Below, in pieces: positions 6,343-33,622 of a DNA stretch of 34,393 bases. The notes below the pieces were generated by a model. The model had not been told where the DNA came from. It saw only the letters and a list, made by a program, of their open reading frames with translations, and did no database searches. This DNA is from Vicinamibacterales bacterium. Lineage in GTDB: Bacteria; Acidobacteriota; Vicinamibacteria; Vicinamibacterales; UBA2999. Within the stretch, counting starts at the first letter, position 1, and each line of letters begins with the position of its first letter. The stretch is from positions 1-34,393 of the forward strand of contig DATDHP010000086.1 in assembly GCA_036521515.1 (NCBI GenBank), read 5' to 3'. The position numbers and the translations under genes are program-made.

Positions 6343-6413
6343 GGAGACGCGGCGACGCGGAGAAAGCCCGCCCGGATTGCCTCCGCGTCTCCGCGCCTCC
6401 GCGGCTCGTGGCT
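6343..6413. repeat. Imperfect hairpin, GACGCGG-word family (family 2), between mlaF and mlaD
   Basis: CGCGGCCGTGGAGACGCGGCGACGCGGAG faces CCTCCGCGTCTCCGCGCCTCCGCGG. The 20-mer GGAGACGCGGCGACGCGGAG (6352-6371) recurs identically at 12564-12583. Confidence 0.75.
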
Positions 6414-6422
6414 CTCATCTTT

Positions 6423-7163
6423 CTACCCCGCGTTCTCCGACCGCATGAACGCGCGCACCACGTCGTTGTCGCTGCCATCCAGCTCCTCCGCGGTGCCGCG
6501 CGCAATCAGGCGTCCCTCGTGCAGCATGGCCAACTCGTCGCCGACGTGGCGCGCGCTTGGAATGTTGTGGGTCACCACGACGAGCGTCGTCCCCTTCTTC
6601 TTGAGATTGAGGAGCAGCTCGTCGATCTCGTCGGAGGTGATCGGATCGAGTCCCGCCGTGGGCTCGTCCACCAGCAGGATGTCCGGATCGAGCGCCATGG
6701 CGCGCGCGAGTCCCGCCCGCTTGCGCATGCCGCCCGAGAGGTCGGCCGGCATCTTGTCGTAGTCCTTCTCGAGCCCCACGTCGGCCAGTTTCGCCTTCGC
6801 CACCGAACGAATCTTCTCGTCCGTCCAGTCGGTGTGCCGGCGAAGCGGGAATGCCACGTTCTCGCCGACGGTGATCGAGTCGAAGAGCGCCGAGCTCTGG
6901 AACAGGAAGCCCATGCTCTTGCGCACCTCCGCGAGCTCGCGCGCGGGAAGGGACGGCACGTCCTTGCCGCGCACGTAGACGTGGCCGCTGTCCGGCTTCA
7001 ACAGCCCGACAATATGCTTGAGCGTGACGCTCTTGCCTGTGCCGCTGCGGCCGAGCAAACAGAAGCCGGCTCCAGGCTTGATGTCCAGCGTGACGTCGTC
7101 CAGCACTTTGCGGCCGTCGAACGCCTTGGACACGCCGTCGAGCCGGATCGCGAAGTCGTCCAT
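6423..7163 (-). CDS. mlaF: ABC transporter ATP-binding protein MlaF
   Basis: Walker A GRSGTGKS, signature LSGGMRKRAGLARA, Walker B ILLVDEPTAGLD, H-loop VVTHN. Its ATG shares one base with the mlaE TGA (TGATG). Confidence 0.9.
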   Translation of the reverse strand: MDDFAIRLDGVSKAFDGRKVLDDVTLDIKPGAGFCLLGRSGTGKSVTLKHIVGLLKPDSGHVYVRGKDVPSLPARELAEVRKSMGFLFQSSALFDSITVGENVAFPLRRHTDWTDEKIRSVAKAKLADVGLEKDYDKMPADLSGGMRKRAGLARAMALDPDILLVDEPTAGLDPITSDEIDELLLNLKKKGTTLVVVTHNIPSARHVGDELAMLHEGRLIARGTAEELDGSDNDVVRAFMRSENAG

Positions 7164-7945
7164 CACGCGTTCGCCGGGAAGAGAAAGAAGATCAACCGCA
7201 CCAGCACCACGTTGGTCACGATGATCAGAATTGACGAGAGGACGACGCTTTGCGTTGCGGTGCGGCCGACGCCTTCGGTACCCTGCGTCGTCGTGAATCC
7301 GAGATAGCAGCCGATGGTCCCGATGATCAGTCCGAAGACGGCCGTCTTGATCGTGGCCGGGATGAAGTCGGTGAACTGGATCAGGGAGAAGGCGCGATTG
7401 AAATAGAGGTCCCACGACATGCCGCTGACGGTGAACTCGGCGAGGAAGCCGCCGACGATGCCGCAGAAGTCGGTGATCGTGGTGAGCAGCGGCATCGCGA
7501 GGATGCAGGCCAGGATGCGGGTCACCGCCAGGAACTTGAAGGAGTCGACCGCCGCGGCCTCGAGCGCATCGATTTGTTCCGTGACCTTCATCGCGCCCAG
7601 CTCGGCGCCGATGCCGGCCCCGACGCGGCCGGCCACGAGGAGCGCCGTCACCAGCGGACCCGTCTCGCGTATCAGCGCGATGGCGAGACCGGAGGGAATC
7701 ATCGCTTCGGCGCCGAAGCGCTCGAGCGACGCGCGTGTATGCATCGACAACACGATGCCGATGGCGAGGCCGGACGTGGCGACGAGCGGCGTGGACCGCC
7801 AGCCGATCTCGAAGACATGACGCGAGATCTCGCGAAGCTCGTAGGGAGGCAGGAACGCCTCGCGCAATGCCCGGAAGGCGAAGAGGGCCACCTCGCCTAT
7901 CCAGGCCAGCGCGGCGAGGATGGCGCCACCCACCCGCTCCAACAT
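7163..7945 (-). CDS. mlaE: ABC transporter permease MlaE
   Basis: Conserved LIRETGPLVTALLVAGRVGAGIGAELGAMKVTEQIDALE block. ATG at 7945 (MLERVGG...) is preferred over the track's TTG at 7963. Confidence 0.9.
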   Translation of the reverse strand: MLERVGGAILAALAWIGEVALFAFRALREAFLPPYELREISRHVFEIGWRSTPLVATSGLAIGIVLSMHTRASLERFGAEAMIPSGLAIALIRETGPLVTALLVAGRVGAGIGAELGAMKVTEQIDALEAAAVDSFKFLAVTRILACILAMPLLTTITDFCGIVGGFLAEFTVSGMSWDLYFNRAFSLIQFTDFIPATIKTAVFGLIIGTIGCYLGFTTTQGTEGVGRTATQSVVLSSILIIVTNVVLVRLIFFLFPANA

Positions 7946-7958
7946 GGCCCATCTGTTT

Positions 7959-7974
7959 TGCAACGGCCGGGCCA
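7959..7974 (-). promoter_or_regulatory. candidate sigma-54 -24/-12 promoter for mlaEFD
   Basis: Minus strand reads TGGCCC-GGCCG-TTGCA, versus consensus TGGCAC-N5-TTGC(A/T): one mismatch and correct spacing. It lies 14 nt before the mlaE ATG. A sigma-54 activator gene is the next gene upstream. Confidence 0.3.
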
Positions 7975-8025
7975 GGAACCCCGGGCGCCGAACCGGACGA
8001 GCTGGGTCGGCGCCCTCGTCGTTTC

Positions 8026-8208
8026 CCGCTTCTCGGTTCTCCCTTCTCTGGTTCGTGTTCAGGTTCGGTGTTCGGTTCGACGTTCGCGCGTCGCGCCTTG
8101 CGGCGCTCGGGCCGGATGTTCGGGCGCCGAGCGCCGCGAACCTGAACCACGAACCGAACCCTGAACGTGAACACGAACCGAGAAGCGAGAAGGCAGAAGG
8201 GAGAACGG
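8026..8208. repeat. About 180-nt compound inverted repeat built from GGTTC/GAACC and TTCTC/GAGAA 6-7-nt words
   Basis: Perfect sub-pairings: 8028-8037 with 8178-8187; 8038-8048 with 8196-8206; 8051-8061 with 8167-8177; inner stem 8101-8110 with 8127-8136. Word order is partly permuted between the arms. Confidence 0.8.
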
Positions 8209-8222
8209 CAGGGCGGGGAGGT

Positions 8223-9647: not shown

Positions 9648-9725
9648 TGATCACCTGGTGGGCGGCCGGTAATTTATCACACTGCGTTGGCAAACAATAC
9701 ATGCCTGCCTCAATTGGTGAGGAAG

Positions 9726-9740
9726 GTTACAGGGTGTAAC
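9726..9740. promoter_or_regulatory. palindrome GTTACA-GGG-TGTAAC in the divergent regulator/mccB intergenic region (possible operator)
   Basis: 6+6 perfect inverted repeat inside a locally AT-rich stretch (9660-9760). No binding protein can be assigned from sequence. Confidence 0.2.
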
Positions 9741-9921
9741 TTTTCCACTCAGTTTAGCGTTGACCGCTCTACGACTCCAAGCGATTGGCACCCAGTTGCG
9801 AGCTCTACCGCGGATCAGCGCAGCCCGTGACCTGGCTCCCGAACCGTTGGTCCTATACTCCGAACCGGAGGATCCAAGCCCGGGACGGTCCGGGGACAGC
9901 ATCCTCCCCACATTGCGTCGA

Positions 9922-11529
9922 ATGGACGTTCTCGATTCCCACATTCGAGTCGACAGCCCGGAGTTCGCCGATAACCACGCGCGGATGACCCGCCTCGTCG
10001 AGGAGCTGAAGGAGCGGCTCAGTGCCGCGCGGCAGGGCGGCGGTCCGCGCGCGCTCCAGCGCCATCGCGATCAGGGGAAGCTGCCGGCACGGGACCGGAT
10101 CGAGCGGCTCCTCGATCAGGGCTCGCCTTTTCTGGAGCTTTCGCCGCTTGCCGCCTGGGAGATGTACGACAACGACGCCCCGGGCGCGGGGCTCGTGACC
10201 GGGCTCGGACGTGTGGCCGGCCGCGAGGTTCTGATCGTCGCCAACGACGCGACCGTCAAGGGAGGGACCTACTACCCGATGACGGTCAAGAAGCACCTGC
10301 GAGCACAGGAGGTGGCGCTCCAGAACCGTCTGCCCTGCGTGTATCTGGTGGACTCCGGCGGCGCCTTCCTGCCTCTGCAGGCCGACGTGTTTCCTGACGG
10401 CCAGCACTTCGGACGTATCTTCTTCAACCAGGCGCGCATGTCAGCCGAGGGGATCGCACAGGTGGCGGTCGTCATGGGCTCCTGCACAGCCGGTGGGGCA
10501 TACGTCCCGGCGATGTCCGACGAAACGATCATCGTCAAGGGGACCGGCACGATTTTCCTGGGCGGGCCGCCGCTCGTGAAGGCCGCGACCGGCGAAGAGG
10601 TCACCGCCGAAGAGTTGGGCGGCGCCGACGTCCATACCCGCATCTCAGGCGTCGCCGACTACATGGCGGAAGACGATGATCACGCGCTTCACCAGGCGCG
10701 GACGGTGATCTCAACCCTCAACAGAGTGAAGACGCTGCCCGGCGACCTCGTCTCGTCCGAAGAGCCGGCGTACGATCCGGCGGAAATTTACGGAATTGTA
10801 AACGCCGATGTCCGCAAGTCGTACGATGTCCGCGAGGTCCTCGCGAGGATCGTCGACGGATCGCGCTTCGACGAGTTCAAGGAGCGGTACGCGCCAACGA
10901 TCGTGACCGGCTTCGCGCGCCTCCACGGTTTTCTCGTCGGCATCGTCGCCAACAACGGGGTGCTGTTCTCTGAGTCGGCGCTCAAAGCGACGCATTTCAT
11001 CGAGCTCTGCAATGTGCGAGGGGTCCCGCTCGTGTTCCTGCAGAACATCACCGGCTTCATGGTCGGGCGTCAGTACGAGCGCGGCGGCATCGCGAAAGAC
11101 GGCGCCAAGATGGTGCACGCGGTGGCCAATTCCGTGGTCCCCAAGTTCACCGTCATCATCGGAGGCTCGTTCGGCGCCGGGAACTACGGCATGTGCGGGC
11201 GCGCGTACGAGCCACGCTTCCTCTGGATGTGGCCCAATGCACGGATCTCGGTCATGGGCGGCGAGCAGGCAGCGGGCGTACTGACCACGGTCAAGCGCGA
11301 TCAGCTGGCGCGCGAGGGCCAACCGCTCAGCGAGGAAGACGAAGAGGCCATTCGCCAGCCGATCCTCGAGAAGTACGAGCGCGAGGGGTCTCCCTACTAT
11401 TCCACTGCCCGCCTGTGGGACGACGGCATTCTCGACCCGGCGCAGACGCGGCACGCCCTGGCCCTCGGCTTGTCGGCCGCCTTCAACGCGCCGATCCTGC
11501 CGCCGAAGTTCGGGGTGTTCAGGATGTAG
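9922..11529 (+). CDS. mccB: methylcrotonyl-CoA carboxylase, carboxyltransferase (beta) subunit
   Basis: 535 aa from the ATG at 9922 ([15 protein letters not shown]...). Typical acyl-CoA carboxyltransferase blocks ([46 protein letters not shown]). Operon context with hydratase, biotin carboxylase and HMG-CoA lyase. Confidence 0.88.
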
Positions 11530-11563
11530 CCACGGAGCGCACCGGGACGACATATGCCACGGA

Positions 11564-11619
11564 GAACACAGCGCGGCCGGAGGCCGCAACCAAAGATGAC
11601 TGTTCGCCGCGCTGTGTTC
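11564..11619. repeat. perfect 14-bp stem hairpin inside the liu operon spacer
   Basis: GAACACAGCGCGGC (11564-11577) pairs with GCCGCGCTGTGTTC (11606-11619), 28-nt loop. Preceded by the direct repeat GCCACGGAG x2. Confidence 0.7.
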
Positions 11620-11637
11620 GAGAACCTGTGCTGGCTA

Positions 11638-11692
11638 GTGACACTAACGCGCTTCTTTGCTGGAAAAACAAACTTCAGCGCGTTAGTGTCAC
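11638..11692. repeat. perfect 15-bp stem hairpin with AT-rich loop inside the liu operon spacer
   Basis: GTGACACTAACGCGC (11638-11652) pairs with GCGCGTTAGTGTCAC (11678-11692). The 25-nt loop is TTCTTTGCTGGAAAAACAAACTTCA. Confidence 0.7.
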
Positions 11693-11746
11693 AAAGACGT
11701 CATGACCACAAGGGCCGCGTCGTGTGTCATGAGTGGCGAGCGTGAC

Positions 11747-12535: not shown

Positions 12536-12556
12536 TTGACCGTCGGCCACTGAGAC

Positions 12557-12709
12557 GGCCCGCGGAGACGCGGCGACGCGGAGCGAGACTGGTTGTCGGG
12601 TGCCGCTCGCGCGCGCCCGGGATTCAATGGCTGCTGTTTCTCGGTCCGGCTGCAATCGGCCCCCACCACAGAACCACAAAACCTCCGCGTTTCCGCGTCT
12701 CCGCGGCCC
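12557..12709. repeat. Family-2 inverted repeat (27-nt arms, about 100-nt spacer) between liuC and mccA
   Basis: GGCCCGCGGAGACGCGGCGACGCGGAG (12557-12583) faces CTCCGCGTTTCCGCGTCTCCGCGGCCC (12683-12709), about 24/27 complementary. Shares a 20-mer with 6352-6371. Confidence 0.75.
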
Positions 12710-12719
12710 GTGACGGCAG

Positions 12720-14219
12720 ATGTTGCGTCGCATCCTGATCGCCAATCGTGGCGAGATTGCGGTGCGCGTCATTCGTGCGTGCCGGGAGCTCGGAATCGAG
12801 TCCGTGGCCGTCTACTCCGACGCGGATGCGCAGGCGCTGCACGCATCGCTTGCCGACCACGCCGTGCGGATCGGACCCGCGGCGCCGTCGGAAAGCTACC
12901 TGCTCGTCGAAGCGATCCTGGCCGCCGCCCGCGCGACGAAGGCGGACGCCATTCATCCCGGCTACGGTTTCCTGTCGGAGAACGCCGCGTTCGCGCATGC
13001 GTGCGAGCAGGCGGGGATCGTCTTTGTCGGTCCGCCGGGAGACGCCATCGAGCGGATGGGCTCGAAGATTGCGGCGCGCGAGATCGCGCACCGCGCCGGG
13101 GTGCCGGTAGTGCCGGGCTCCATCCCCGCGGATCAGTCCGACGGAGCCATTGCGGGTGCGGCACACGTCCTCGGCTTCCCCGTCCTGCTGAAACCATCGG
13201 CCGGCGGCGGCGGGATCGGGATGAAAGCGGTCCGGGAGGAGGCGGCCTTGCTGCCGTCGATTGCGCAGGCTCGCCGGGAGGCGTCAGCCGCGTTTGGCAA
13301 TGACACGCTCTACGTCGAGCGGCTGGTCGAGCAGCCGCGGCACGTCGAGATTCAGGTGATCGCCGACGCCCACGGACAGGTGCTCCACCTCTTCGAGCGC
13401 GAATGCTCCATCCAGCGGCGCCACCAGAAGATCGTCGAGGAGTCGCCGTCGGTCGCGTTGACGCCGGCACTGCGCGCGCGAATGGGAGAGGCGGCGGTCC
13501 GCGTGGCGCGCGCGGCGGGGTACCGCAATGCGGGGACGATCGAGTTCCTGCTCGATGGCGCCGGTGACGCCGCGAGGTTCTATTTCCTCGAGATGAACAC
13601 GCGCCTGCAGGTCGAGCACCCGGTCACCGAGCAGGTGACCGGCGTCGACCTCGTGCGCGCACAGATAGCCGTGGCGTCCGGCGAGAGGCTGCCGTGGTCA
13701 CAGGCGGAGATCGCGCAGCGCGGCCACGCGATCGAGGTGCGGGTCTACGCGGAGGATCCGTCGCGGAACGACCTGCCGCAGGCCGGCCCCCTGCTCCTCT
13801 ATCGAGAGCCGGTCATGCCGGGCATCCGGGTGGATGCCGGCGTCGTCGAGGGCGGTCAGATCAGCGTTCACTACGACCCGATGATCGCCAAGCTCATCGC
13901 GTCGGGAGACACGCGGGACGCCGCGCGCAGGCGCGCGCTTGCCGCGCTGCGCAGCTATCCCATCCTGGGGATCCGGACGAACGTGCCGTTCCTCATCGCC
14001 CTGCTCGAGCATCCGCGCTTCGTCAGCGGCGAGCTCGACACGCACTTCCTCGACCGCGAAGGGGCGGCGCTTCGGTCTGCGCTCGCGACGGAACCTCCAG
14101 CAGAAGTGCTGGCCATCGCCGATGCCCTTCTGCCGGGCGTAGAGGCCGACCTTCGGGTCGGCCAGGATGCTGGACGTGATGCCGATCCCTGGAGCGCGTT
14201 GCAGAATGTCCGCGTCTAA
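12720..14219 (+). CDS. mccA: methylcrotonyl-CoA carboxylase alpha subunit, biotin-carboxylase part only (499 aa)
   Basis: MLRRILIANRGEIAVRVIRACRELGI start, ATP-grasp blocks (GFPVLLKPSAGGGGIGMK, EMNTRLQVEHPVTE). Ends ...DPWSALQNVRV-TAA, without a biotinyl domain. Confidence 0.9.
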   Translation: MLRRILIANRGEIAVRVIRACRELGIESVAVYSDADAQALHASLADHAVRIGPAAPSESYLLVEAILAAARATKADAIHPGYGFLSENAAFAHACEQAGIVFVGPPGDAIERMGSKIAAREIAHRAGVPVVPGSIPADQSDGAIAGAAHVLGFPVLLKPSAGGGGIGMKAVREEAALLPSIAQARREASAAFGNDTLYVERLVEQPRHVEIQVIADAHGQVLHLFERECSIQRRHQKIVEESPSVALTPALRARMGEAAVRVARAAGYRNAGTIEFLLDGAGDAARFYFLEMNTRLQVEHPVTEQVTGVDLVRAQIAVASGERLPWSQAEIAQRGHAIEVRVYAEDPSRNDLPQAGPLLLYREPVMPGIRVDAGVVEGGQISVHYDPMIAKLIASGDTRDAARRRALAALRSYPILGIRTNVPFLIALLEHPRFVSGELDTHFLDREGAALRSALATEPPAEVLAIADALLPGVEADLRVGQDAGRDADPWSALQNVRV

Positions 14220-14604
14220 CGTCCGGGTCACATCGCTTGGCGGGGGCCGGTACCGCGTGAACGACGGTACGCGGCAATGGCTGGCCCATGGCGTCGCCGC
14301 GGGAGACGCCCGTTGGGTTTTTTTCGATGGGGGCGTGTACCTGATCGACGCGGCGCCTCCTGCGCGTCGGAAGGCGCGTCACAGCCACGATGAGACCGCG
14401 CTCGCCTCGCCCATGCCGGCGACCGTCGTGATGATTAACGTGCAGCCCGGCCAGCGGGTCGCGCAGGGAGATCTGTTGATCATGCTCGAGGCCATGAAGA
14501 TGGAGTTGCCGATCAAGGCGCCCCGGGATGGACGCGTCAACGCGGTCACCTGCCGCCGGGGCGAGCTCGTGCAGCCGGGTGTTCCGCTCCTGGACTTCGA
14601 GTGA
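14206..14604 (+). CDS. biotin carboxyl carrier (BT-linker + biotinyl domain) ORF in the +1 frame; the detached C-terminal part of mccA
   Basis: Biotinylation motif EAMKME in ...GDLLIMLEAMKMELPIKAPRDG.... The ATG at 14206 overlaps the end of the biotin-carboxylase ORF by 14 nt. The start is uncertain (14167 and 14179 are also possible), and the split itself may be a frameshift. Confidence 0.7.
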   Translation: MSASNVRVTSLGGGRYRVNDGTRQWLAHGVAAGDARWVFFDGGVYLIDAAPPARRKARHSHDETALASPMPATVVMINVQPGQRVAQGDLLIMLEAMKMELPIKAPRDGRVNAVTCRRGELVQPGVPLLDFE

Positions 14605-15515: not shown

Positions 15516-15518
15516 CCA

Positions 15519-16220: not shown

Positions 16221-16262
16221 TCCGGTTCCCGGATCCCGGTTTCCCCGATCCCGGCTTCCCGT
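16221..16262. repeat. tandem degenerate heptamers (CCGGNTC) with no complementary arm
   Basis: CCGGTTC CCGGATC CCGGTTTC CCCGATC CCGGCTTC CCG, lying between convergent gene ends. Confidence 0.6.
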
Positions 16263-17348: not shown

Positions 17349-17394
17349 CGCTGCAATCGATGCTCCTTCCCGCATTATCATCAGCCCTTCACGT

Positions 17395-17464
17395 CCACGA
17401 ACCACAGAGACACAGAGTCACCGAGAAAATCAACCTCTGAGTCTCGTGCCTCTGTGGTTCGTGG
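17395..17464. repeat. imperfect hairpin (CACAGAG-type 7-8-nt words) in a divergent promoter region
   Basis: CCACGAACCACAGAGACACAGAGTCACCGAG (17395-17425) faces CCTCTGAGTCTCGTGCCTCTGTGGTTCGTGG (17434-17464). The outer 15 bp pair perfectly and the next 4 have one mismatch. Confidence 0.7.
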
Positions 17465-17489
17465 TTCAACTACGACCGGAGGAGTTCGA

Positions 17490-17933: not shown

Positions 17934-17946
17934 TTGAAATCACGTG

Positions 17947-17992: not shown

Positions 17993-18007
17993 CCACATCG
18001 TGGACAT

Positions 18008-20376: not shown

Positions 20377-20380
20377 GCAG

Positions 20381-23500: not shown

Positions 23501-26500
23501 GGCCCCGAGCTGGAACTGGCCGTAGTTGTTGTCGACGATGATGTCTTCGTCGGTGACGAGACGGACGTCGAGCGCCAGGCGCTCGAGGGCGTCGCCGCTT
23601 TCCACCGCGGTGGCGACCTGCGCCGCGCGAAGGTTGGCGAGCAGACCGGTCACCACGGCGAGCGGCTCTCGATACGCGCCGCGCAGCACGGTGACCGTGC
23701 CCTCGAGGCGGGTATCCGGTAGATCCTGCCCGGGAACGGTCGCCGCCACCACGCGGAGGTCGGCGTCCAGCTCGCTGCGAAGGCCGGCTGGAAACTCGAG
23801 CGCCATCGAACGGATGCCCGTGGCGATCCGCGCACTCACCTGCCCGGCTGACCCGAGCTCTGCGCTTCCCTCTGCGGTGAGGCTGCCGCCATTGATCGAC
23901 CCGGTCATCGACGTCAGGTTGACGGTCGAGCGCGTGAGCACGGCCCGGCCGTTCAGGTCGGACACGATGACGCGCGGAGCGACCAGCCGCATCTCGCCGC
24001 CGGTCACCAGGAGATCGCCATCGACGCGCGGATCGCCGAGCGCGCCGGTAATCGACAGGCGCGGCTGAAGGGACCCGGCCGTGGTAAGGCCTGCGGCCCG
24101 GACGAATGGCGTAGCCATGCGCAAGTCGAGTTCCCCGTTCGCGAGGATCGCGGCCTGAAGATCCTCGAGGCGCACCTGTCCCTGCACGCTCACCCTGGCG
24201 CCCTGGCCGGTCCAGTCCCAGGCCTCGACGCGGGCCAGGCCGTCGCGCGCGACGATGCGCGTGGGCACACGCTGGGTGACTGGAAGGTCCGCGATCCGCA
24301 GGTCGAGCCGATCGAGCTGGAGTTCCCCGCGAACGGCGGTCAGGTCGAGCGACGGCGAACTGGCGGACAACGTGGCATCGACCGACCCGGAGATCTCCTG
24401 GGCCGCGCTGGTGTCCAGGAAGGGTTCGAGCACCATCGCGGTGATGCCCGTGACGCTGGCCTGCAGCGATGCCTCGCCCGGCCCGGCGCCAGGAACCGGA
24501 ATGCCAGCGAGTGACAGCGGCGCTCGCCCCATTCCACTGACCGTGGCCCCCTGGTACACACCGCGGGCCTCGCGCAGGTCGATCCAACCGTCTTCCACGT
24601 GCGTCCGCATGCGCAGATCGGAAATCGTCGGAAGGTCGGTCAGCGTGATCTCGCCTGGACCGACCTCGAGATCGGCCGAGACGAGCGGCGCCTCGAGCGA
24701 ACCCGCCACGCGCGCGAGCAGCGCGACCGGGCCGCTGCCCCCGGCCACCGGCACCGAGGTGATGCCGGTCGCCGCCACGGTCCTCGCGACCTCTCCGATG
24801 TTTCCGCTCATCGTGGCAATGATGCCCGCCGGGAGACTTCCAGCCCCTTGTTCCTGGCTCCGGGTGGCGAACGCGTACATCTCGCCCGAGGCTGAGATAT
24901 GCGTCTCGCCAGCCGCCGCTTCGAGGCGATCGATCGCGAGGCGTTCGCTCCGGTATCTCAGCAGCGCCGGCTCGAGAAGCCGTACCGGCAAGTCGCCGGC
25001 CTTCCCCTCGAATGCGGTGACCTCGAGGTCGGCAGAGCCGGCCCTCCACGTTTCGAGTGGCCCGTCCGCCCGGAGGGCCAGCGTCGTCGTGCCTCCGATT
25101 GCGATGGGAGTCTCGACCATCCCGAGGATCCGCACCAGGTCGATCCGATCGACATGCGCGGTCATCGATGTCATGTAGGGTTTCGAGATGGCGATCCGCG
25201 CGTCCGCCGTGGCGTTGAACTGCGGCACCGTCGCCGCGATATGAGCCAGTTGCGGATCGACCTCCACGGTCGCCATGATGTCGCCGATCGTCACGTTTTC
25301 CCACGCGACCTCACGCGCGGTGACAGCGCCCTCCGCCATCACCTCCGCGGCCCGCCCCGATCCGCGCACCATCGCATCGACGCGTCCGCGCAGCGGCATG
25401 TCGACGGTCGGTGCCAGGGCCCAGTCGGTGAGCGTGGAGTCGAAGGTGTAGCGCTCCGTGCCCGTGTCGAACGTCCCCGAGATCGACACCGGACCGCTGG
25501 CAGGCGGATCCGCCACGCGCACATTGTCGCTGACCGCGCTGAAGGTGACGTGCGTGCCCGAGGACGTGCCCGTGTCGAGCGCACCCGAGATCGAGACGGG
25601 ACCGCTGGCGGGCGGGTTTGCCACCGTCAAATTGTCGCTGGCGGCGGTGAACGTCACGTGCGCGCGCGAGAACGTGCCTTCGATACGCGCCTCCGCACGC
25701 GCGCGGCCGGCCGGAACCGCATCAGCGGGAACGTCCGCGAGTCGAGCGCGGCGCAGCGCATCCGCCACGGCCTGCACATCCGCATCGGGAATCCGCACGT
25801 CGCCGGCAACCGTTGATTGGGGGATCTCGCTGGCAAGCCGACCGGAAAGCGAAAACGCCGTCCTCGCCACGTTACCGGCGCGGTGCTCTCCCTCGAGGCG
25901 CCACTGGCCGCTCGAGAGAGTCAGCCGCGACTCGCCGGGCATCGCAAGGGGAATGAACGGCGTCGGACGATTGCCGAGCTGGATGCGGGCAGCGACGGTG
26001 GCGCGTGCCGTGAGAGGATCGTCGCCCGCCAACGGAACCATTGCCGAGCCGCTGATGCGCCCGCCCTCGATGTCGAACGCCGCCCGCGCGATCGTCAACA
26101 GGTCCGGCGTGACGTTCGCGCTCGCCGCAACATTGACGAGCGCGATCTGCGGCGTGGCAATTCGGGGCGCGTTGATCTCGAGCTCGGCTGTCGGTCCGGC
26201 GAGCGGCCCGGCGACGCGACCGGCGAACGTGAGCGTGCCGCGAGGCGCCTCCGCCTCCGCCATGCCCCACCGCGCAAGACGCGCAACCTCCGCCGCGCCG
26301 TCCACGCGCAGGTCGAGCGCCGGGGCGGCCGCGATGACGGTGAGTGCCCCGTCCACACGGACGCGGCCTTCCTCAGCCTGCACCTCCATGCCCGCGAGGT
26401 GAAGCGTGCGGCCATCGAACCTCGCGCGCCCCGCGAGCGAGGTGACGTGGGTGCCCTGGTCTCCGACGCTCAGAGTCGCCGGTCCCGTCACCGCGATGCG

Positions 26501-27016
26501 GCCATCATCCGCCGCGAGCTCCACCACGGCGCCCGGAATCGTCAACGCGAACCTGGCGACCTCATCCCGCACGTCCACCCTGAGCGGCGACAGCAGAAGA
26601 TGGCCGAATCGAAGCGGCGCGGGCTCGCCTTCGCCAGCGGCGGTCGAGTCAGGCAGGTTGGTCTCCGCTGCCGCGGAGCGGACGATGCGCACGACGCCAT
26701 TGGTGACGGCGACGTCGTCGAGCGCGACGTCACCGAAAAGCGTGCGCCGCGGCACGGTCACCGCGACGTAATCGGCTTCGAAGAGGGGTGGCTGCTTTCC
26801 CTGCGCGGAGATGCGCACGTCCGCGAGACCGATGCGCAGGCCGGCCAGGTTGTAGTCGAGCCGCGATGCATCCACGCGGATCCCGTATTGAGCCTGGACT
26901 GTGGCCACCGCATACCTGAGGACGCGGGCGCGGACGAACGGGGCATGCACGAGGAGGGTGGCCGCTGCGACCAGCAGCACTGCAGCCACGAGGAACAACG
27001 CGAGCCGGCGCCTCAT
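20579..27016 (-). CDS. 2145-aa fusion: TamB-like (signal-anchor + beta-rich repeat region + DUF490-like end) joined to POTRA repeats and an Omp85/TamA-BamA-type barrel
   Basis: One uninterrupted frame. aa 1-1397 (nt 22826-27016) are TamB-like and end WIVEYLPSRQIELRLVSDDDDLFSFGLRHDMSFGG. aa about 1412-1808 (21593-22783) are POTRA-like modules. aa about 1809-2145 (20582-21592) are a barrel ending GLWTFGIGQAF. Confidence 0.85.
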   Translation of the reverse strand: MRRRLALFLVAAVLLVAAATLLVHAPFVRARVLRYAVATVQAQYGIRVDASRLDYNLAGLRIGLADVRISAQGKQPPLFEADYVAVTVPRRTLFGDVALDDVAVTNGVVRIVRSAAAETNLPDSTAAGEGEPAPLRFGHLLLSPLRVDVRDEVARFALTIPGAVVELAADDGRIAVTGPATLSVGDQGTHVTSLAGRARFDGRTLHLAGMEVQAEEGRVRVDGALTVIAAAPALDLRVDGAAEVARLARWGMAEAEAPRGTLTFAGRVAGPLAGPTAELEINAPRIATPQIALVNVAASANVTPDLLTIARAAFDIEGGRISGSAMVPLAGDDPLTARATVAARIQLGNRPTPFIPLAMPGESRLTLSSGQWRLEGEHRAGNVARTAFSLSGRLASEIPQSTVAGDVRIPDADVQAVADALRRARLADVPADAVPAGRARAEARIEGTFSRAHVTFTAASDNLTVANPPASGPVSISGALDTGTSSGTHVTFSAVSDNVRVADPPASGPVSISGTFDTGTERYTFDSTLTDWALAPTVDMPLRGRVDAMVRGSGRAAEVMAEGAVTAREVAWENVTIGDIMATVEVDPQLAHIAATVPQFNATADARIAISKPYMTSMTAHVDRIDLVRILGMVETPIAIGGTTTLALRADGPLETWRAGSADLEVTAFEGKAGDLPVRLLEPALLRYRSERLAIDRLEAAAGETHISASGEMYAFATRSQEQGAGSLPAGIIATMSGNIGEVARTVAATGITSVPVAGGSGPVALLARVAGSLEAPLVSADLEVGPGEITLTDLPTISDLRMRTHVEDGWIDLREARGVYQGATVSGMGRAPLSLAGIPVPGAGPGEASLQASVTGITAMVLEPFLDTSAAQEISGSVDATLSASSPSLDLTAVRGELQLDRLDLRIADLPVTQRVPTRIVARDGLARVEAWDWTGQGARVSVQGQVRLEDLQAAILANGELDLRMATPFVRAAGLTTAGSLQPRLSITGALGDPRVDGDLLVTGGEMRLVAPRVIVSDLNGRAVLTRSTVNLTSMTGSINGGSLTAEGSAELGSAGQVSARIATGIRSMALEFPAGLRSELDADLRVVAATVPGQDLPDTRLEGTVTVLRGAYREPLAVVTGLLANLRAAQVATAVESGDALERLALDVRLVTDEDIIVDNNYGQFQLGADLRLIGTAAAPALSGRADLREGGQLFVGRNIYTVTSGTIDFANPAVIEPNLNLALTTRAGGVDIEVTIAGTPASPSVSLEAPSSEEVLSQVELTALLMTGRRLANLNTADAAFIGEQVLGNLSADVLGFAGRAIGLDTLRIGGVQTSGILSDSTVLTADLDPTSRLTFGKGFGSNLDVTLSQSLRDGDAQTWIVEYLPSRQIELRLVSDDDDLFSFGLRHDMSFGGARRTAAAPAVRRRADLRVTTVAIQGALVAPEARVRDLLSLAEGDRFDFGEWQRDRDRVEQFYQAQGYLTARITATRMEADAGVTLTYTVTPGPRTEIVVEGMDVPAAVMAELRQAWAESVFESFLIEEATEIVSRALAQQGYLQAKVSARMMEAVETQTLTIDAVPGPRTATVTVEIQEVEGPLREQVSAEVALRRLADRAATDPGGVGRELTEYLRTQGYLGARVTVGAPRFDGDAAVVPITVTPGEPVVIGTVGLEGVMRLTIDQLREAAALAEGVAADPAAIELARERIVGLYRREGFASVTVTARQALRSGEPRLDVTFVVAEGPRQVLAEIAVGGNQSIDTDVIERALDLTLKQPLRPEEWLQARTRVFDTGLFRRVDVSSEPLADAAAAEGMLPMRMRVTVEEWPALRARYGLLLAEERPEDNVNGRDLVPGLSADVTRRTLFGRAMTLGGAAGFQQRERLGRVFVSAPTMFGLRVGSSFVVERARRSFASDSLETDTSSAAWEQRWRVTPRINVSYAYRIEQNHTFDTEPPTDITDIPFDVLITAARLTGSGAWDTRDDPADTVRGSLLSTSLELAADGLGSDISYVRSLTQGYYFRPWRRIVFASAARVGVVKPLAGQELLSSFHFFAGGARTVRGFEEDGLSERNFFGDPVGGQGLLVLNQEVRFPVYRWVRGVGFVDFGSMSPEPKVSFRDMSMSAGFGVRLTTPFGVLRLDYGRVISSGFEFPSSGLWTFGIGQAF

Positions 27017-27141
27017 CCGGCCTTTATCGTACGCCCGGTCTCTCCTCCCGGCTAAGTCAGACCCGGGTCAGGCGGCTGCAGGTGCAAATAACCGCACCGA
27101 CGTGCTACTTTAATGTCGTCGTCGCCGGCTTGCACACGCTA

Positions 27142-28200: not shown

Positions 28201-28209
28201 TTACAAACT

Positions 28210-28345
28210 CATTGTTGAGTCGTGATGGTTGATTGTTGAGTGGTTGTTGAATGGCGATTGCCGATTGTTGATTCATTCAGGGAATCAACAATCAACATTC
28301 AACATTCAACAACGATTCAACAATCAGCAATCACCAATCAAGAAT
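28210..28345. repeat. about 136-nt AT-rich hairpin with roughly 64-nt arms made of AATCAAC/ATTCAAC heptamers
   Basis: Central perfect stem GATTGTTGATTC (28263-28274) with GAATCAACAATC (28282-28293). The arms extend imperfectly to 28210 and 28345. GC is far below the window average. Confidence 0.85.
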
Positions 28346-28350
28346 GAAGC

Positions 28351-31386: not shown

Positions 31387-31432
31387 GCCCGCTACTCTAC
31401 CCTGAATAGCCGAGCAAGCCGTTGCCAAAGGA

Positions 31433-31551
31433 GCCGGCAGCAGGCAGCCGGCAGCAGGCAGTTCGTAGAGGCGGATCTTCAGGTCCGCCTGGCAGCGGTG
31501 AAAGGCGGACCTGAAGGTCCGCCTCTACGTTAGCGGCTGCCTGCTGCCGGC
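31433..31551. repeat. compound element: GCAGCAG/GCAGCCG heptamer arms enclosing two inverted family-1 26-mers
   Basis: Family-1 copies lie at 31465-31490 (forward) and 31503-31528 (reverse). The outer arm GCCGGCAGCAGGCAGCCGGCAGCAGGCAG (31433-31461) faces GCTGCCTGCTGCCGGC (31536-31551). Confidence 0.85.
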
Positions 31552-31556
31552 GATCG

Positions 31557-31994: not shown

Positions 31995-32056
31995 GCTTCC
32001 CTCCCATTTGCCGGCAATTGCAAGTGCGTGCGCGCTCGCTCCCGCGTTCCGACCGG

Positions 32057-32281
32057 TCAGACCCGCCGGCGAGCAGGCGCCACGAGCAGTGCAATGCCGC
32101 CAATGACCGCAATAATCCCCACTGCGGGCGGCACTCGGAATCCTTCGCGCTCCTCGGATGTAATCTCGATGGGCCCTGCGTCTACCAGGGTGTCCCTATC
32201 GGTCCAGAACACGCCACCCCATGCCAGCGCGACGATGCCAAGCGCGACCAGTACCAGCCCGACTATGCGTCTTCCGCTCAT
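32057..32281 (-). CDS. small two-TM membrane protein (74 aa)
   Basis: ATG at 32281 is preceded by AGGAGG. Two hydrophobic helices. The longer 244-aa track ORF is an upstream read-through. Confidence 0.6.
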   Translation of the reverse strand: MSGRRIVGLVLVALGIVALAWGGVFWTDRDTLVDAGPIEITSEEREGFRVPPAVGIIAVIGGIALLVAPARRRV

Positions 32282-32328
32282 CCGTAACCTCCTGTTTGGA
32301 TGAGTGCAAGTCGAGGACCGTTCCTGTC

Positions 32329-32979
32329 TCAACGCGAGGTGTCGCTCGTCAATAGCGCGCTGACGGCAGCGAGTTCGTCGGCGCTGATGCTGTGGCCCAT
32401 GCCTGGATAGATGCGCTCGTCCACCACAGCGCCCATTCGACGCAGCACCTCCGCGGACTCCTGGACGCGTTCGAGCGGGATGTGGGCGTCGATGTCGCTG
32501 CACCCGAGGAAGACCGGCGTGCCGTCGAGCGATCCGTGACAAGCGCGCGGCGTGCCGGGCGGACCAATCAGCCCGCCGCTCAACCCCACGACGCCGGCGT
32601 ATTTGCGCGCATGGCGCGCGACGTACTCCAGCGAGAGGCACGCCCCCTGCGAAAAACCGATGAACATGACCCGTTCGGGTCTGACGCCCTCCTCGCCAAG
32701 GGAGTCCACCAGCCGATTCATGACGCGCAGCGCGGAGCTGAGATACGGCTGGTTCTGTACGGTCGGGGCCAGAAAGGAGTAGGGGTACCACGTCCGCCCA
32801 GCCGCCTCCGGTGCGAGGTACGCGACATCCCGCACGTCGAGCGCTTCCGCCAGGCCGAGGATGCCCTCGGCGGAATCGCCGCGGCCGTGAACCAGGATCG
32901 CGGTGAGTCGGGCTTCACGCGGAAGCGGCCCGTACCGAAGCACGGGCTGCCCCGCATGTGGATCCAGATGCGGCGCCAT
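32329..32979 (-). CDS. alpha/beta hydrolase, phospholipase/carboxylesterase family
   Basis: Nucleophile elbow GFSQG. Downstream catalytic Asp and His contexts (GCSDIDAHIP, GMGHS). Confidence 0.85.
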   Translation of the reverse strand: MAPHLDPHAGQPVLRYGPLPREARLTAILVHGRGDSAEGILGLAEALDVRDVAYLAPEAAGRTWYPYSFLAPTVQNQPYLSSALRVMNRLVDSLGEEGVRPERVMFIGFSQGACLSLEYVARHARKYAGVVGLSGGLIGPPGTPRACHGSLDGTPVFLGCSDIDAHIPLERVQESAEVLRRMGAVVDERIYPGMGHSISADELAAVSALLTSDTSR

Positions 32980-33022
32980 TCGGACCGCTAGGCGGCTCTC
33001 GACGAGCGTCGCCGGCAGTCGA

Positions 33023-33034
33023 CGTCACGTGACG
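33023..33034. promoter_or_regulatory. perfect 12-bp palindrome CGTCACGTGACG in a divergent intergenic region
   Basis: Self-complementary 12-mer, 44 bp upstream of the hydrolase start on the opposite strand. No cognate regulator is identifiable. Confidence 0.2.
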
Positions 33035-33216
33035 AACACGCTTCAATGGTGTGGACGGAACGCATCGCCAGATCATAGGCGAACGCGACTTTGGTCCTCC
33101 GGCAGGGTCAGCCAAGGCGAAAATCGGCGTGTTACGCCTTACCAGGCGAAACAGTTGAGTTGGTACCCGCATTGCTACAGACCGAGGTGTCGGCAGCAAC
33201 GAGGGGAGACGAACCG

Positions 33217-33468
33217 ATGGTGCAAACGTTCTGCTCGAGCGGCCAGCGGGAAGGAATCAAAGGGGCGGTCCACGGGATGGCCTGTGCTATTGCCGCGACG
33301 ATGGCGGCGTACAACATCGCTGCCTGGCATTATCGACGCGAGCGTCACCTGGGCACCAACGCCGTCGTGTACACGCTTGCGGTTGCGTGGGAAGCAAAGC
33401 AGACACTGCGTCACCTTCGCCGATGCGAACGGGCCGCGGTGACGGATAAGACGGATCGGGCTGCCTGA
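33217..33468 (+). CDS. hypothetical small membrane protein (83 aa)
   Basis: ATG is preceded by GAGGGGAG. Two hydrophobic segments. Moderate GC3 bias. Weak call. Confidence 0.4.
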   Translation: MVQTFCSSGQREGIKGAVHGMACAIAATMAAYNIAAWHYRRERHLGTNAVVYTLAVAWEAKQTLRHLRRCERAAVTDKTDRAA

Positions 33469-33502
33469 AACCCGTCCGACCGACGTATCGATGGGGAGAA
33501 CG

Positions 33503-33622
33503 TCAACTCCCAATCCTCTGACCATGACCAACTCCCAACCCAAGACCTTGGGAGTTGGCACACGACAGCCGCTCGCACCCCCACGCGCAGGCGCGTCGGG
33601 ACCCCGCCGTTGGGAGTTGGGA
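33503..33622. repeat. nested inverted repeats of the word CAACTCCCAA / TTGGGAGTTG
   Basis: Forward copies at 33504-33513 and 33529-33538; reverse copies at 33548-33557 and 33610-33619. The inner perfect 11-bp stem is 33528-33538 with 33548-33558. Confidence 0.7.

Follow-up and report, generated by a model that had tools for sequence, protein, structure and literature searches.

The window, the whole 34,393-nt stretch of soil acidobacterial DNA (order Vicinamibacterales) analyzed here, harbors a hypervariable class of intergenic palindromes. In each, two SSR-type arrays in inverted orientation flank either a loop or a core hairpin, which in some cases is a REP doublet. Such palindromes are enriched in some of the Vicinamibacterales, and at least one of their repeat words also occurs in cyanobacteria. 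The elements are a many-word version of the paired repeats known from Xanthomonas and cyanobacteria. They are probably built by slippage and inverted copying, for the most part directly downstream of stop codons, with a generic terminator or 3'-protector role at best.

Tandem-arm hairpins in the window

Tandem Repeats Finder (TRF) detects 15 separate arrays of period 7 or 8 across the whole window, 14 of which fall in 4,859 nt of spacer and one in 29,534 nt of coding DNA. In the spacers alone, TRF detects 13 arrays, whereas 200 dinucleotide-preserving shuffles yield 0.36 on average (sd 0.59, maximum 3). The majority of the arrays are inverted pairs (6338-6405, 8025-8217 (nested), 12555-12711, 17395-17464, 18725-18814, 20401-20577, 28209-28347, and 31433-31551) and fold much better than shuffles, with z -3.5 to -12.5. 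These results bear out the proposal of an earlier note on this DNA that intergenic hairpins with tandem 7-8-nt arms are a real class; in the window, period 7/8 is enriched over shuffles and coding DNA. Read directly, each of the ten loci that it listed exists and contains the word given for it; an eleventh, 3887-3982, was overlooked. The elements follow, none with an assigned strand; z compares folding with shuffles, and REP-type units consist of GTAG and a GC-rich hairpin with a TTCA loop.

3887-3982: tandem-arm hairpin from the YtxH stop to the BrkB start; GGCTCCG/GGCTTCG left, CCCGTAG/CCCGTCG right; TRF period 7 at 3887-3916 and 3951-3982; spacer z -2.7
6338-6405: hairpin of the GGAGACGC octamer family, MlaF stop to MlaD start; arms 6338-6362 and 6381-6405; z -4.8 (6330-6415)
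8025-8217: three-layer nested palindrome, sigma-54 regulator stop to MlaE start; outer layer 8025-8047/8195-8217 (GAGAAGN), inner layer 8050-8085/8144-8179 (GGTTCNN), core a GC-rich hairpin at 8086-8143; the words noted earlier are present in irregular units of 5-7 nt; spacer z -8.1 (7964-8222)
12555-12711: hairpin of the GGAGACGC family, enoyl-CoA hydratase stop to biotin carboxylase start; outer arms 12555-12583/12683-12711, weaker inner arms 12584-12602/12664-12682 (ACCACAAA); spacer z -5.1 (12536-12719)
16222-16261: array of CCGGNTC, period 7 or 15, abutting the stop of a PHP-domain gene; as first described, it lacks a partner arm, and it forms no hairpin (z -1.6)
17395-17464: divergent PHP|OsmC region; hairpin built of CACAGAGA/GAGACAC units, with 17395-17413 and 17446-17464 as its arms; z -6.9 (17390-17470)
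18725-18814: AT-rich hairpin of ATCTTCA/ATCTGCA, Dps/ferritin stop to GDSL lipase start; z -4.0 (18725-18814); spacer (18707-18814) 42% GC
20381-20577: composite palindrome occupying the whole TPR|TamB-Omp85 spacer, which is convergent; left array 20381-20450 (GGCACAA/GGCTCAA), right array 20536-20577, REP-type units at 20448-20472 (-) and 20510-20534 (+); six pairing registers; spacer z -10.9 (20377-20578)
28209-28347: AT-rich hairpin filling a convergent spacer (28201-28350, 38% GC); 66-nt arms of ATTGTTG/AATCAAC match ungapped at 82%, with irregular units at mirrored places; best register scores 34.8, the next 18.4; z -9.7 (28201-28350)
31432-31551: composite palindrome, BON-domain gene stop to M14 peptidase start; arms 31433-31450/31534-31551 (GCAGCAG/GCAGCCG) complementary at 18/18 positions; REP doublet 31465-31489 (+) and 31504-31528 (-); z -12.5 (31429-31556)
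33504-33626: weakly tandem element of CAACTCCCAA/TTGGGAGTTG; the word is present, but in only about 1.5-2 copies per arm and with no TRF call; inner hairpin 33527-33557, outer pair 33504-33513/33609-33620; z -3.6 (33495-33630)

Other properties described in the earlier note hold, including the AT-richness of some elements (18725-18814 and 28209-28347) and the capacity to pair in several registers. An alternative register offset by a multiple of the unit exists in 17 of 19 strict tandem hairpins (median score ratio 0.88). The claim that nearly every spacer over 60 bp is occupied is overstated. Elements are carried by 11 of the 20 spacers of at least 60 nt; two spacers (11530-11701 and 17934-18007) contain plain hairpins without tandem arms, and an element is absent from seven (313-842, 4410-4856, 9648-9759, 19364-19764, 27017-27081, 31995-32328, and 34109-34393). 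Several independent projects have produced MAG and metagenome assemblies with elements of this kind, which excludes the assembly artefact that had been a concern. Gene labels pointed to a proteobacterium, but the window does not come from one: its closest relatives are Vicinamibacterales (Acidobacteriota), most of which carry such elements.

Shared words and turnover of arms

The repeat unit is mainly 7 nt long, less often 8-9 nt, and at least 10 different words occur within 34 kb. Each locus was thought to have a word of its own, yet the same 20-mer, GGAGACGCGGCGACGCGGAG, is found at loci 6343 (in the left arm of 6338-6405) and 12557 (at 12563-12582), where the loops are unrelated, and locus 17395 (CACAGAGA) matches their RGAGRCRC pattern by eye. 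Words recur across genomes as well. CAAGGCA/CAAGTCA, TTGGGAG, and GGTTCNN with GAGAAC are repeated at non-orthologous sites in other Vicinamibacterales. The word pair of 8025-8217 flanks a REP doublet in one relative (L001, 12684-12935), and that of 33504-33626 is arranged as hairpins in L017, L020, and L147 and as an array without a partner in L021. The array (GGAGACGC)n occurs on more than 120 metagenome contigs of 41-75% GC, one of which belongs to a Symploca-like cyanobacterium. Two window loci carry one and the same arm, down to the order of its variant units, and words recur at non-orthologous sites and in another phylum; this argues against a purely local origin, so copying between sites or a constraint on word choice must also act.

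One explanation for such sharing, within and between genomes, is that these are non-autonomous mobile elements (MITE/REPIN-like), with arms recognized by a transposase encoded elsewhere (RAYT-type Y1 or other) and each word family representing a copy lineage. The identical 20-mer arms at two unlinked loci would fit this explanation, as would the presence or absence of whole elements relative to L017 and other relatives and the physical association with true REP-type GTAG palindromes. In the (ACGCGGAG)n family, found on more than 120 contigs, array boundaries are fairly constant (tTc...aaa) and arm order is fixed. However, conservation stops at the array, no target-site duplication is apparent in the examples read, loops are unrelated, and unit number ranges from 2 to 17. 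Lone single arms exist and vary independently, many words occur per genome, each at few sites in the short stretches sampled, and a Pfam scan of the 27 window ORFs reveals no transposase. We consider mobility an unlikely origin.

Units and whole arms are gained and lost between close relatives and strains. Among three strains that are 99.7% identical, all indels longer than 2 nt (9 nt, or one unit; 14 nt; and 30 nt) fall in tandem arrays, and two genomes that are 93% identical (L003 and L004) differ by indels of 7 nt (one unit) and 26 nt (3.7 units), each confined to one arm; differences in unit number between short-read assemblies might partly be assembly error. At the same site, L003 has both arms and L004 has the right arm only. 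The three L003 units are all CTCCGTG, with a complementary left arm of CACGGAG, and the L004 units are CTCCGCG, the third being CTTCGCG. A tandem hairpin of L003 also sits where L004 has a REP. Of the 25 related loci, 12 contain paired arrays and most of the rest unpaired ones of period 7/8; the most distant loci have few arrays or none.

Orthologous spacers show turnover at fixed sites. In the TamB|TPR spacer, the window and six of eight relatives have a hairpin (the other two have none); in five of these six relatives the arms are tandem, at least four different words being used, and the sixth has a REP-type hairpin. A hairpin likewise occupies the YtxH|BrkB spacer in 7/7 genomes, window included, with differing words or REP units instead. 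The elements at 6343 and 8026 are both missing from the orthologous spacers of the closest relative, L017. In six relatives, the sigma-54 regulator|MlaE spacer is only 29-58 nt long and weakly structured (z -3.9 to +1.2), indicating that the 8025-8217 element is all-or-none. L017 keeps the arms of 12555-12711 around an unalignable loop; at 17395, its left arm has one unit more than that of the window and its right arm has diverged.

These comparisons suggest how the palindromes might be built. Whole units are gained and lost by replication slippage, as is shown by the unit indels in strains and close species. The second arm may arise, and stay similar to the first, through inverted copying by template switching from one hairpin arm to the other. 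Mirrored irregular units, concerted complementary arm changes, and whole arms present or absent between close relatives all point to this step. New layers might form around an existing hairpin to yield nested 'onion' palindromes, of which 8025-8217, L001 12684-12935, and an element in L029 are layered examples.

Position, polarity, and possible roles

Most elements lie 0-20 nt downstream of a stop codon and occupy the whole spacer. Of the window hairpins, the eight next to a mapped stop start 0-19 nt from it, and 33504-33626 lies 63 nt from one. The contexts are mixed, as first reported, and include convergent ends, junctions of co-directional genes, and one divergent region. The earlier judgment that these are not canonical terminators also stands, since hairpins followed by a U-tract show no excess over shuffles in the window and none is found at the element loci.

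The 5' arm is usually rich in purines or A, and the 3' arm in T/pyrimidines. In the GGAGACGC family, a complementary array lies downstream in 71/116 cases and upstream in 5/129, and strict hairpins have the purine-rich arm 5' in 24/24. With mixed words, the 5' arm has A>T in 15/19, plus two of three new cases, a modest statistic (p about 0.02).

The RNA would form long hairpins with several pairing registers, and a T/pyrimidine-rich 3' arm would yield a weak RNA-DNA hybrid. Together with the near-stop, spacer-filling position and the lack of excess U-tract terminators, these features suggest that the elements may at best be generic U-tract-independent terminators or 3'-end protectors, similar to REP/BIME. 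At any single locus they appear dispensable. Arguing against function are presence or absence between close relatives (6343, 8026, and the six genomes with a 29-58-nt spacer), the location of some elements in apparent operons or in 5' or divergent regions (17395 and several metagenome cases), and stem mismatches with no G.U preference on the transcribed strand (20 consistent versus 23 inconsistent).

Another proposal holds that the elements are selected RNA structures, either multi-register, U-tract-free terminators or RNase III/3'-exonuclease barrier hairpins, with tandem arms as the adaptation. Because the unit approximates the length of the RNA-DNA hybrid, each would offer a fresh termination window, and the stem would outlast slippage. 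Elements adjoin stop codons and completely fill convergent spacers, a given junction keeps a hairpin from genome to genome even though the sequence of that hairpin is replaced, canonical terminators are lacking, the 3' arm is usually T/pyrimidine-rich, and alternative registers score nearly as well as the best. Selection on RNA is nonetheless decidedly unlikely, given that the transcribed strand shows no G.U-over-A.C asymmetry, orthologous spacers of close relatives lack elements, partnerless arrays exist, and elements also occur between seemingly co-transcribed co-directional genes and in 5' regions.

Strand-symmetric mismatches are expected if no single transcript is selected, and polarity is identical on either strand; both observations would suit a role at the DNA level, as a cruciform, G-quadruplex, or protein-binding array (nucleoid protein, replication, or restriction-related) in which the word is the recognized unit. 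Words common to different phyla, and the resemblance of GGGAG/GGGAA units to G4-forming GGGANTN repeats of Xanthomonas (PMC4692102), point the same way. Such a role is highly improbable, however: the unrelated words in one genome are too numerous for a single binding protein, most words are unable to form a G-quadruplex, the architecture is the same for AT-rich and GC-rich words, and within the window there is no link to a DNA-binding or restriction system.

Relation to known repeat systems

GGGAATC heptamer arrays form 70-75 convergent inverted pairs in each Xanthomonas genome, at about 65% GC (Rehm et al., 2015; PMC4692102), so that palindromic heptamer hairpins had in fact been described in a high-GC genome. 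The earlier reading stands for the hairpin class, its registers, and its contexts, and falls for word uniqueness and novelty; it had also overlooked the REP doublets at 20381 and 31433. As in the window, the arrays of the high-GC X. campestris and X. axonopodis are intergenic tandem heptamers of 2 to 26 units with degenerate copies, about three quarters of which lie in close inverted pairs capable of forming stem-loops (PMC4692102). Their pairs are always 'convergent', with the purine-rich arm 5' on each strand, the commonest polarity here. They occur in every arrangement of neighboring genes, divergent being rarest, and related species do not share conserved arrays of comparable length (PMC4692102). 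Xanthomonas differs in having one genome-wide consensus, GGGANTN, studied as a G-quadruplex former, whereas the window has at least 10 words in 34 kb, mostly not G4-capable, as well as 8-nt units. The Xanthomonas paper reports no nested layers or REP cores, both of which are present here, and shows neither an origin mechanism nor an RNA role for the pairs (PMC4692102). What sets the elements here apart from those pairs is the many words per genome.

Cyanobacterial STRR (short tandemly repeated repetitive) heptamers and long SSRs in general (a 2007 SSR survey cited in PMC4692102; also PMC4679880) are likewise intergenic tandem 7-nt units with several words per genome, variable copy number, and an equally unassigned function. 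The window family (GGAGACGC)n is literally present in the Symploca-like cyanobacterial contig. STRR are described as direct arrays, with few inverted pairs in Nostoc (PMC4692102), while the window belongs to a 66% GC acidobacterium and most of its arrays are hairpin arms. The TAACTGA repeats of Beggiatoaceae are also abundant intergenic heptamers; they too occur in distant phyla, and no mechanism for their transfer is known (MacGregor, 2015; PMC4679880). Unlike the window elements, they involve a single word, are nearly all direct (169 direct sets, 1 indirect), and lie mostly just upstream of start codons, where translation regulation is proposed (PMC4679880).

REP/REPIN/BIME elements and their RAYT partners share the placement after stops, between convergent genes, and at intra-operon junctions, and they form hairpins as inverted doublets that are present or absent between relatives (Bertels & Rainey, 2011; PMC3116915). 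The tandem arms of the window differ in having no GTAG, no fixed sequence or length, and whole-unit changes. Published REPINs comprise one or few families with hundreds of copies (PMC3116915), in contrast to the many words here, and no RAYT gene is found in the window. True REP-type units nevertheless occur beside tandem-arm hairpins, inside them, or in their place at orthologous sites, and a REP doublet forms the hairpin core in three cases (20381, 31433, and L001 12684-12935). One further unit lies within a gene:

14139-14163, + strand: GTAGAGGCCGACCTTCGGGTCGGCC, a diverged unit of REP type contained in the 3' end of the biotin carboxylase ORF, one base off the REP unit of L004 and L014

Intergenic hairpins and the words of their arms

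The tandem-arm hairpins, intergenic palindromes whose arms are runs of 7-8-nt units, are a real and clearly non-random feature of the window (34,393 nt, 66% GC). When each locus is read, the repeating words named in the earlier note at ten loci are all present, and an eleventh locus, overlooked there, lies at 3887-3982. TRF reports 15 separate period-7/8 arrays in the window: the spacers (4,859 nt) contain 14 and the coding sequence (29,534 nt) a single one; the bias is reversed for arrays of period 6, 9 or 12 (11 of 13 coding). The suspected period-7 excess is borne out in the window spacers, where TRF finds 13 arrays against a mean of 0.36 (sd 0.59, max 3) in 200 dinucleotide-preserving shuffles of the same spacers. 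Arm pairing is recovered by both an inverted-repeat finder and an ungapped palindrome scan, and nine loci have a complementary partner array nearby, forming inverted pairs. The array at 16222-16261 indeed lacks a partner arm and is unfolded (z -1.6), and at 33503-33622 each arm holds fewer than two copies of the word.

Fold z-scores of window loci (whole spacers or segments folded and compared with shuffles)
31429-31556: -12.5
20377-20578: -10.9
28201-28350: -9.7
7964-8222: -8.1
17390-17470: -6.9
12536-12719: -5.1
6330-6415: -4.8
18725-18814: -4.0
33495-33630: -3.6

The elements do not fill nearly every spacer longer than 60 bp, as had been claimed: only 11 of 20 spacers of at least 60 nt hold one. 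Two others carry ordinary hairpins (11530-11701 and 17934-18007), and seven contain no such element (313-842, 4410-4856, 9648-9759, 19364-19764, 27017-27081, 31995-32328 and 34109-34393). Stems had been expected to pair in several registers, and 17 of 19 strict tandem hairpins can indeed pair in an alternative one, offset by a whole number of units, with a median score of 0.88 relative to the best. Because independent MAG and metagenome assemblies, from projects of several kinds and sources, contain the class as well, an assembly artefact is rejected. CRISPR is rejected on anatomy, the units being contiguous 7-8-mers without spacers.

A different word at each locus had also been proposed. The window holds at least ten different words in 34 kb, yet the loci 6343 and 12557 (named by their start coordinates) share one 20-mer exactly, GGAGACGCGGCGACGCGGAG. 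The right arms of the two are almost the same, and the loops, 18 nt and 99 nt long, are unrelated. The exact 20-mer arm has no match in 25 related loci; in L017, the closest relative, the orthologue of 12557 differs from both window copies at two bases, and the window copies are therefore closer to each other than to it. The elements do not have the form of a MITE: only the arrays are common to copies, the loops of 6338-6405 and 12555-12711 being unrelated. Among the matches listed, the 132 arrays of the GGAGACGC family show no conserved flank or target-site duplication, and a scan of 27 window ORFs against Pfam finds no Y1 (RAYT-type) transposase.

Words are likewise shared between genomes. 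The CAAGGCA/CAAGTCA family occurs in the window and in five related loci (L005, L007 at three sites, L008, L009 and L013 at two sites), TTGGGAG in the window, L017, L020, L021 and L147, and the GGTTCNN and GAGAAC pair of window 8025-8217 at a different junction in L001. GGAGAYGCGGNGACGCGGAG is found in at least 120 metagenome contigs of 41-75% GC; among the matches listed, the array is a whole number of ACGCGGAG units, from 2 to 17, with no conservation beyond the array. One contig, of 44% GC, comes from a Symploca-like cyanobacterium, its neighbouring Uma2 endonuclease being 89% identical to a Symploca protein. In this contig, L097, (GGAGACGC)n arrays with the word of window 6343 and 12557 lie at 2995-3014 and 7483-7502, unpaired, 4.5 kb apart and inside long ORFs of 1,508 aa and 446 aa. 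At least one word is therefore common across phyla, and this ties the class to the STRR of cyanobacteria, which had been cited as an analogy only. Contigs from the same sample as L097 carry the classic STRR-like heptamers CAATTCC and AATTCTC.

Paired arrays are present in 12 of the 25 related loci, and TRF finds unpaired period-7/8 arrays in most others.

Paired words in four related loci
L007: CAAGTCA/TTGTGCC, AATGCAA/TTTGCAT, GGGCTTT/GCCCAAA
L010: ATCCGCT/GCGGATC
L016: TCAGTCG/GACTGGC
L002: AATCGTG/GATTCAC

By strict criteria, tandem arms are found in 20 of 92 strong hairpins; the period is 7 in 16 of the 20, and 19 lie outside ORFs. Arrays are few or absent in the most distant loci (L018, the Gemmatimonadota MAG L019, and L022-L025), and four further relatives (L160-L163) have no strict tandem hairpins, so array density depends on lineage. 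Literature searches on acidobacterial, STRR and inverted tandem repeats return no description of the class in Acidobacteria, and a search on the repeat strings themselves finds no paper.

Layering, site replacement and turnover

Several elements are built in layers. At 20381-20577 and 31432-31551 the centre is an inverted doublet of GTAGAGGCGGACCTTCAGGTCCGCC, a REP-type unit in which GTAG precedes a GC-rich hairpin with a TTCA loop.

REP units in the window (20-40 nt, 5' GTAG and an imperfect palindrome)
20448-20472: core unit
20510-20534: core unit
31465-31489: core unit
31504-31528: core unit
14139-14163: fifth, diverged copy, in the last 80 nt of the biotin carboxylase ORF, encoding VEADLRVGQ

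Only these units have REP/REPIN form, and the tandem arms lack it; the doublets 20448-20534 and 31465-31528 have the REPIN arrangement of two inverted units forming a hairpin. The exact REP core GGCGGACCTKMAGGKCCGCC is not found in the 25 related loci, and a looser structural search detects related GTAG units in six of them (L004, L014, L008, L013, L015 and L020). In L001, the element at 12684-12935 likewise has tandem arms on either side of a REP doublet, the third of this build. The element at 8025-8217 has three layers (outer word, inner word and core hairpin), and a metagenome contig, L029, is layered in the same way.

At two junctions, orthologous spacers keep a hairpin while its make-up changes. 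Between the TamB and TPR genes, a hairpin is present in the window and in six of eight relatives, five with tandem arms (four or more words) and one of REP type; the spacers of the two relatives without a hairpin are 20 and 33 nt. Between YtxH and BrkB, all seven genomes, including the window, have a hairpin, made of tandem words in some and REP units in others. In all seven, a conserved ATAATC box (e.g., GCCATAATCGG, GTGATAATCACC) stands between the hairpin after YtxH and the start of BrkB (window 3860-3886, read on the - strand; orthologous spacers of L003, L007, L008, L013, L020 and L021); it is a possible -10 promoter element or some other signal. At the PHP/BCCP spacer, L004 has a REP unit, GTAGAGGCCGACCTTCAGGTCGGCC, at 11395-11420 and L003, 93% identical to it, a tandem-arm hairpin at 11434-11515 (CACGGAGG... 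/ CCTCCGTG...). Tandem and REP hairpins thus occupy one niche and can replace each other.

Elements also come and go. In L017, 6343 and 8026 are absent, 12557 keeps its arms around a loop that no longer aligns, and 17395 has a left arm longer by one unit. In six genomes, 29-58 nt of sequence with little structure (z -3.9 to +1.2) separate the sigma-54 regulator and MlaE genes; in the window and L025 this spacer measures 259-290 nt and is strongly structured. A whole 37-nt left arm is found in L003 only, leaving the L004 arm unpaired. Three units read CTCCGTG throughout in L003 and CTCCGCG in L004 (CTTCGCG in the third L004 unit), and the L003 left arm reads CACGGAG, the complement of its CTCCGTG units; the unit differences are a concerted, compensated change. 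The two also differ within single arms, by 7 nt (one unit) and by 26 nt (3.7 units).

Among three strains that are 99.7% identical and come from different samples (L146, L147 and L148), all indels longer than 2 nt lie in tandem arrays, at ~1489 and ~17758-17790 (GCGAACCNN, 9 nt, one unit; CAACTCCCAAGGCGT, 14 and 30 nt), part of which could be short-read assembly error. The arrays of these strains behave as VNTR-like strain markers. The indel data show slippage by whole units, and the arm differences point to some process by which an arm is copied or corrected from its partner. Irregular units stand at mirrored positions in the two 66-nt arms of 28209-28347, as expected from inverted duplication. 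The nature of the elements and their mode of change are well supported.

Arm order, function and known systems

The two arms are not interchangeable. In the GGAGACGC family, among the matches listed, the purine-rich array has a complementary partner on its downstream side in 71 of 116 testable cases and on its upstream side in 5 of 129, and the purine-rich arm is 5' in all 24 strict hairpins listed. In mixed-word Vicinamibacterales hairpins, A exceeds T in the 5' arm in 15 of 19 (binomial p = 0.02); extra loci add only three strict hairpins, two of them with an A>T 5' arm. Hairpins inside ORFs have no arm-order bias (11 vs 11). Exceptions to the purine- or A-rich 5' arm in the window are 8025, 18725 and 28209. 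Since a palindrome reads alike on both strands, the rule is strand-independent, and it is not explained by stem stability alone. Xanthomonas pairs are likewise all "convergent" (PMC4692102).

Position relates the elements to gene ends. Across the eleven window loci, eight hairpins start 0-19 nt from a flanking stop codon, and the unpaired array directly adjoins a stop. For 33504-33626 the nearest stop is 63 nt away, and 17395-17464 is found between divergent genes. Three elements span convergent spacers from stop to stop. The hairpins at the window loci, read directly, are followed by no T-run. U-tract terminator-like sites occur no more often than in shuffled sequence (11 for an expected 9.8, and 7 for an expected 8.7), with none at these loci. 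The elements do not fit the intrinsic (Rho-independent) type of terminator, a short GC-rich stem-loop with a U-tract directly after it. Canonical promoter and terminator scans of the window find nothing above chance, and Rfam 15 gives no match at gathering score anywhere in it.

The 3' arm is usually T- or pyrimidine-rich, and such an arm would form a weak RNA-DNA hybrid. By analogy with REP/BIME, we infer that the elements could act as generic U-tract-independent terminators or 3'-end protectors, a role that would fit their position at stop codons, the persistence of hairpins at TamB/TPR and YtxH/BrkB, the T-rich 3' arm and the lack of a U-tract. Any strong function is disfavoured by presence and absence between close relatives and by elements inside apparent operons and in 5' regions; nor do G.U mismatches outnumber A.C ones on the transcribed strand (20 vs 23, small numbers). 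Mimicry of SD/anti-SD sequences (GGAG/CUCC) is rejected, such motifs occurring in only about half of the words. Decoy restriction sites (e.g., CGTCTC and CAGCAG) would be a speculative reading and are not favoured. Intrastrand-triplex motifs, as far as the available text of PMC4666352 describes them, were considered and set aside.

The earlier note knew of no palindromic heptamer hairpins in a high-GC genome. Such pairs are published: in the ~65% GC genome of Xanthomonas, about three quarters of GGGAATC heptamer arrays lie in close convergent inverted pairs (PMC4692102), and these arrays are the closest published case. As in Xanthomonas, the window has tandem runs of at least two heptamers that are mostly intergenic (14 of 15) and complementary arrays in convergent orientation (nine paired loci). 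Xanthomonas has a single consensus word, GGGANTN, with G-quadruplex potential, whereas the window has many words, most of which cannot form G-quadruplexes; G4-like GGGAG/GGGAA units occur at 33504-33626 only. Also particular to the Vicinamibacterales case are the phylum, many words per genome, 8-nt units, nested layers, REP cores, same-site replacement by REPs, documented whole-unit change between strains and an octamer word shared across phyla. Cyanobacterial STRR are direct tandem heptamers, whereas here the host is Vicinamibacterales and most arrays are inverted pairs; the GGAGACGC word in the Symploca-like contig is an overlap of vocabulary with STRR rather than membership. The class is best filed as a multi-word form of inverted SSR- or STRR-type arrays, which are known but unexplained.

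To our knowledge, nobody has explained the origin and role of bacterial heptamer repeats. According to a survey cited in PMC4692102, their over-representation in many bacterial genomes has been known since 2007. This lineage is unusually rich in them: each genome uses many words, the arrays form inverted pairs, nested layers surround REP cores, and whole units change between strains. The arm-order rule is common to this lineage, the Xanthomonas pairs and the cosmopolitan octamer family; together with the apparent layered growth around REP cores and the lack of canonical terminators, it makes the lineage a good system for questions of repeat origin and transcript ends. An ambitious and rather improbable reading would treat inverted 7-8-nt arrays as one kind of element across phyla (Acidobacteriota, Xanthomonas, cyanobacteria and others), directionally built: a hairpin core, such as a REP doublet, would grow outward unit by unit, always with the purine- or A-rich array 5' and its copy 3', and would act as a multi-register terminator without a U-tract, the units approximating the length of an RNA-DNA hybrid. 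If true, it would give an origin and a role to the excess heptamer repeats of bacterial genomes.

Little is known of transcription signals in Acidobacteriota. If cultured Vicinamibacter carry the elements, the replacement of canonical terminators by hairpins, the growth of palindromes and the relation of REPs to simple repeats would become testable. The arrays are VNTR-like markers for strain typing and likely trouble spots in the assembly and annotation of soil MAGs.

Genes of the window and other repeats

A map of about 25 genes combines Pfam scans (27 candidate ORFs, hits for 21), ORF lists and third-position GC. It comprises DUF255, BrkB and YtxH; MlaD, MlaF and MlaE; a sigma-54 response regulator; a carboxyltransferase, an enoyl-CoA hydratase, a biotin carboxylase and a biotinyl-domain protein; a PHP-domain protein, OsmC, a GDSL lipase, Dps/ferritin and a TPR protein; a 2,145-aa TamB-POTRA-Omp85 fusion; and M28 and M14 peptidases, a BON-domain protein, an esterase and an RF-1-domain protein. 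A proteobacterial host of Burkholderia type, to which GC content and the mla and liu genes might point, is rejected: the closest relatives of the PHP-domain protein (74-86% identity) are in Vicinamibacterales (Acidobacteriota) MAGs, where gene order is largely kept. The exact sequence of the window Dps protein is not on record, and the sigma-54 regulator has no match above 95% identity in the protein collection.

The fusion is a single ORF (20579-27016, - strand) with DUF748/AsmA/TamB domains at the N-terminus and POTRA and Omp85 at the C-terminus, a single protein that combines TamB with a TamA-like barrel. Called genes of relatives have the same domains in 2,198-2,241 aa, and the fusion is therefore native to the clade. 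Within the ORF, a 108-nt tandem repeat at 25457-25678 (2.1 copies, 82% matches) therefore encodes a 36-aa internal protein repeat. Two overlapping + strand ORFs encode the methylcrotonyl-CoA carboxylase alpha subunit in split form, one for the biotin carboxylase (12720-14219) and one for the biotinyl domain (14167-14604), the ATG of the latter at 14205 overlapping the former, whose TAA is at 14217-14219. The split recurs in L146-L148, and L161 has a fused 583-aa gene.

Other repeats lie in the spacers. Just upstream of the enoyl-CoA hydratase gene, 11638-11692 is a perfect 16-nt inverted repeat (GTGACACTAACGCGCT / AGCGCGTTAGTGTCAC, 23-nt loop) that could be an operator or another inserted palindrome; a second plain hairpin occupies 11564-11619 in the same 172-nt spacer, which is absent in L017, the two genes being directly adjacent there. 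The divergent Dps/ferritin and TPR genes are separated by 401 nt, within which a 19-nt direct repeat at 19593-19631 (GTGGACACATGTGAAAGAA, 2.1 copies) includes the palindrome CACATGTG; a regulator may bind at this repeat. A degenerate tandem array of period ~15 (ATGCCAGCGCGACG, 3.3 copies), without an inverted partner, occupies 32221-32268 in the 334-nt spacer that separates the BON-domain and esterase genes.
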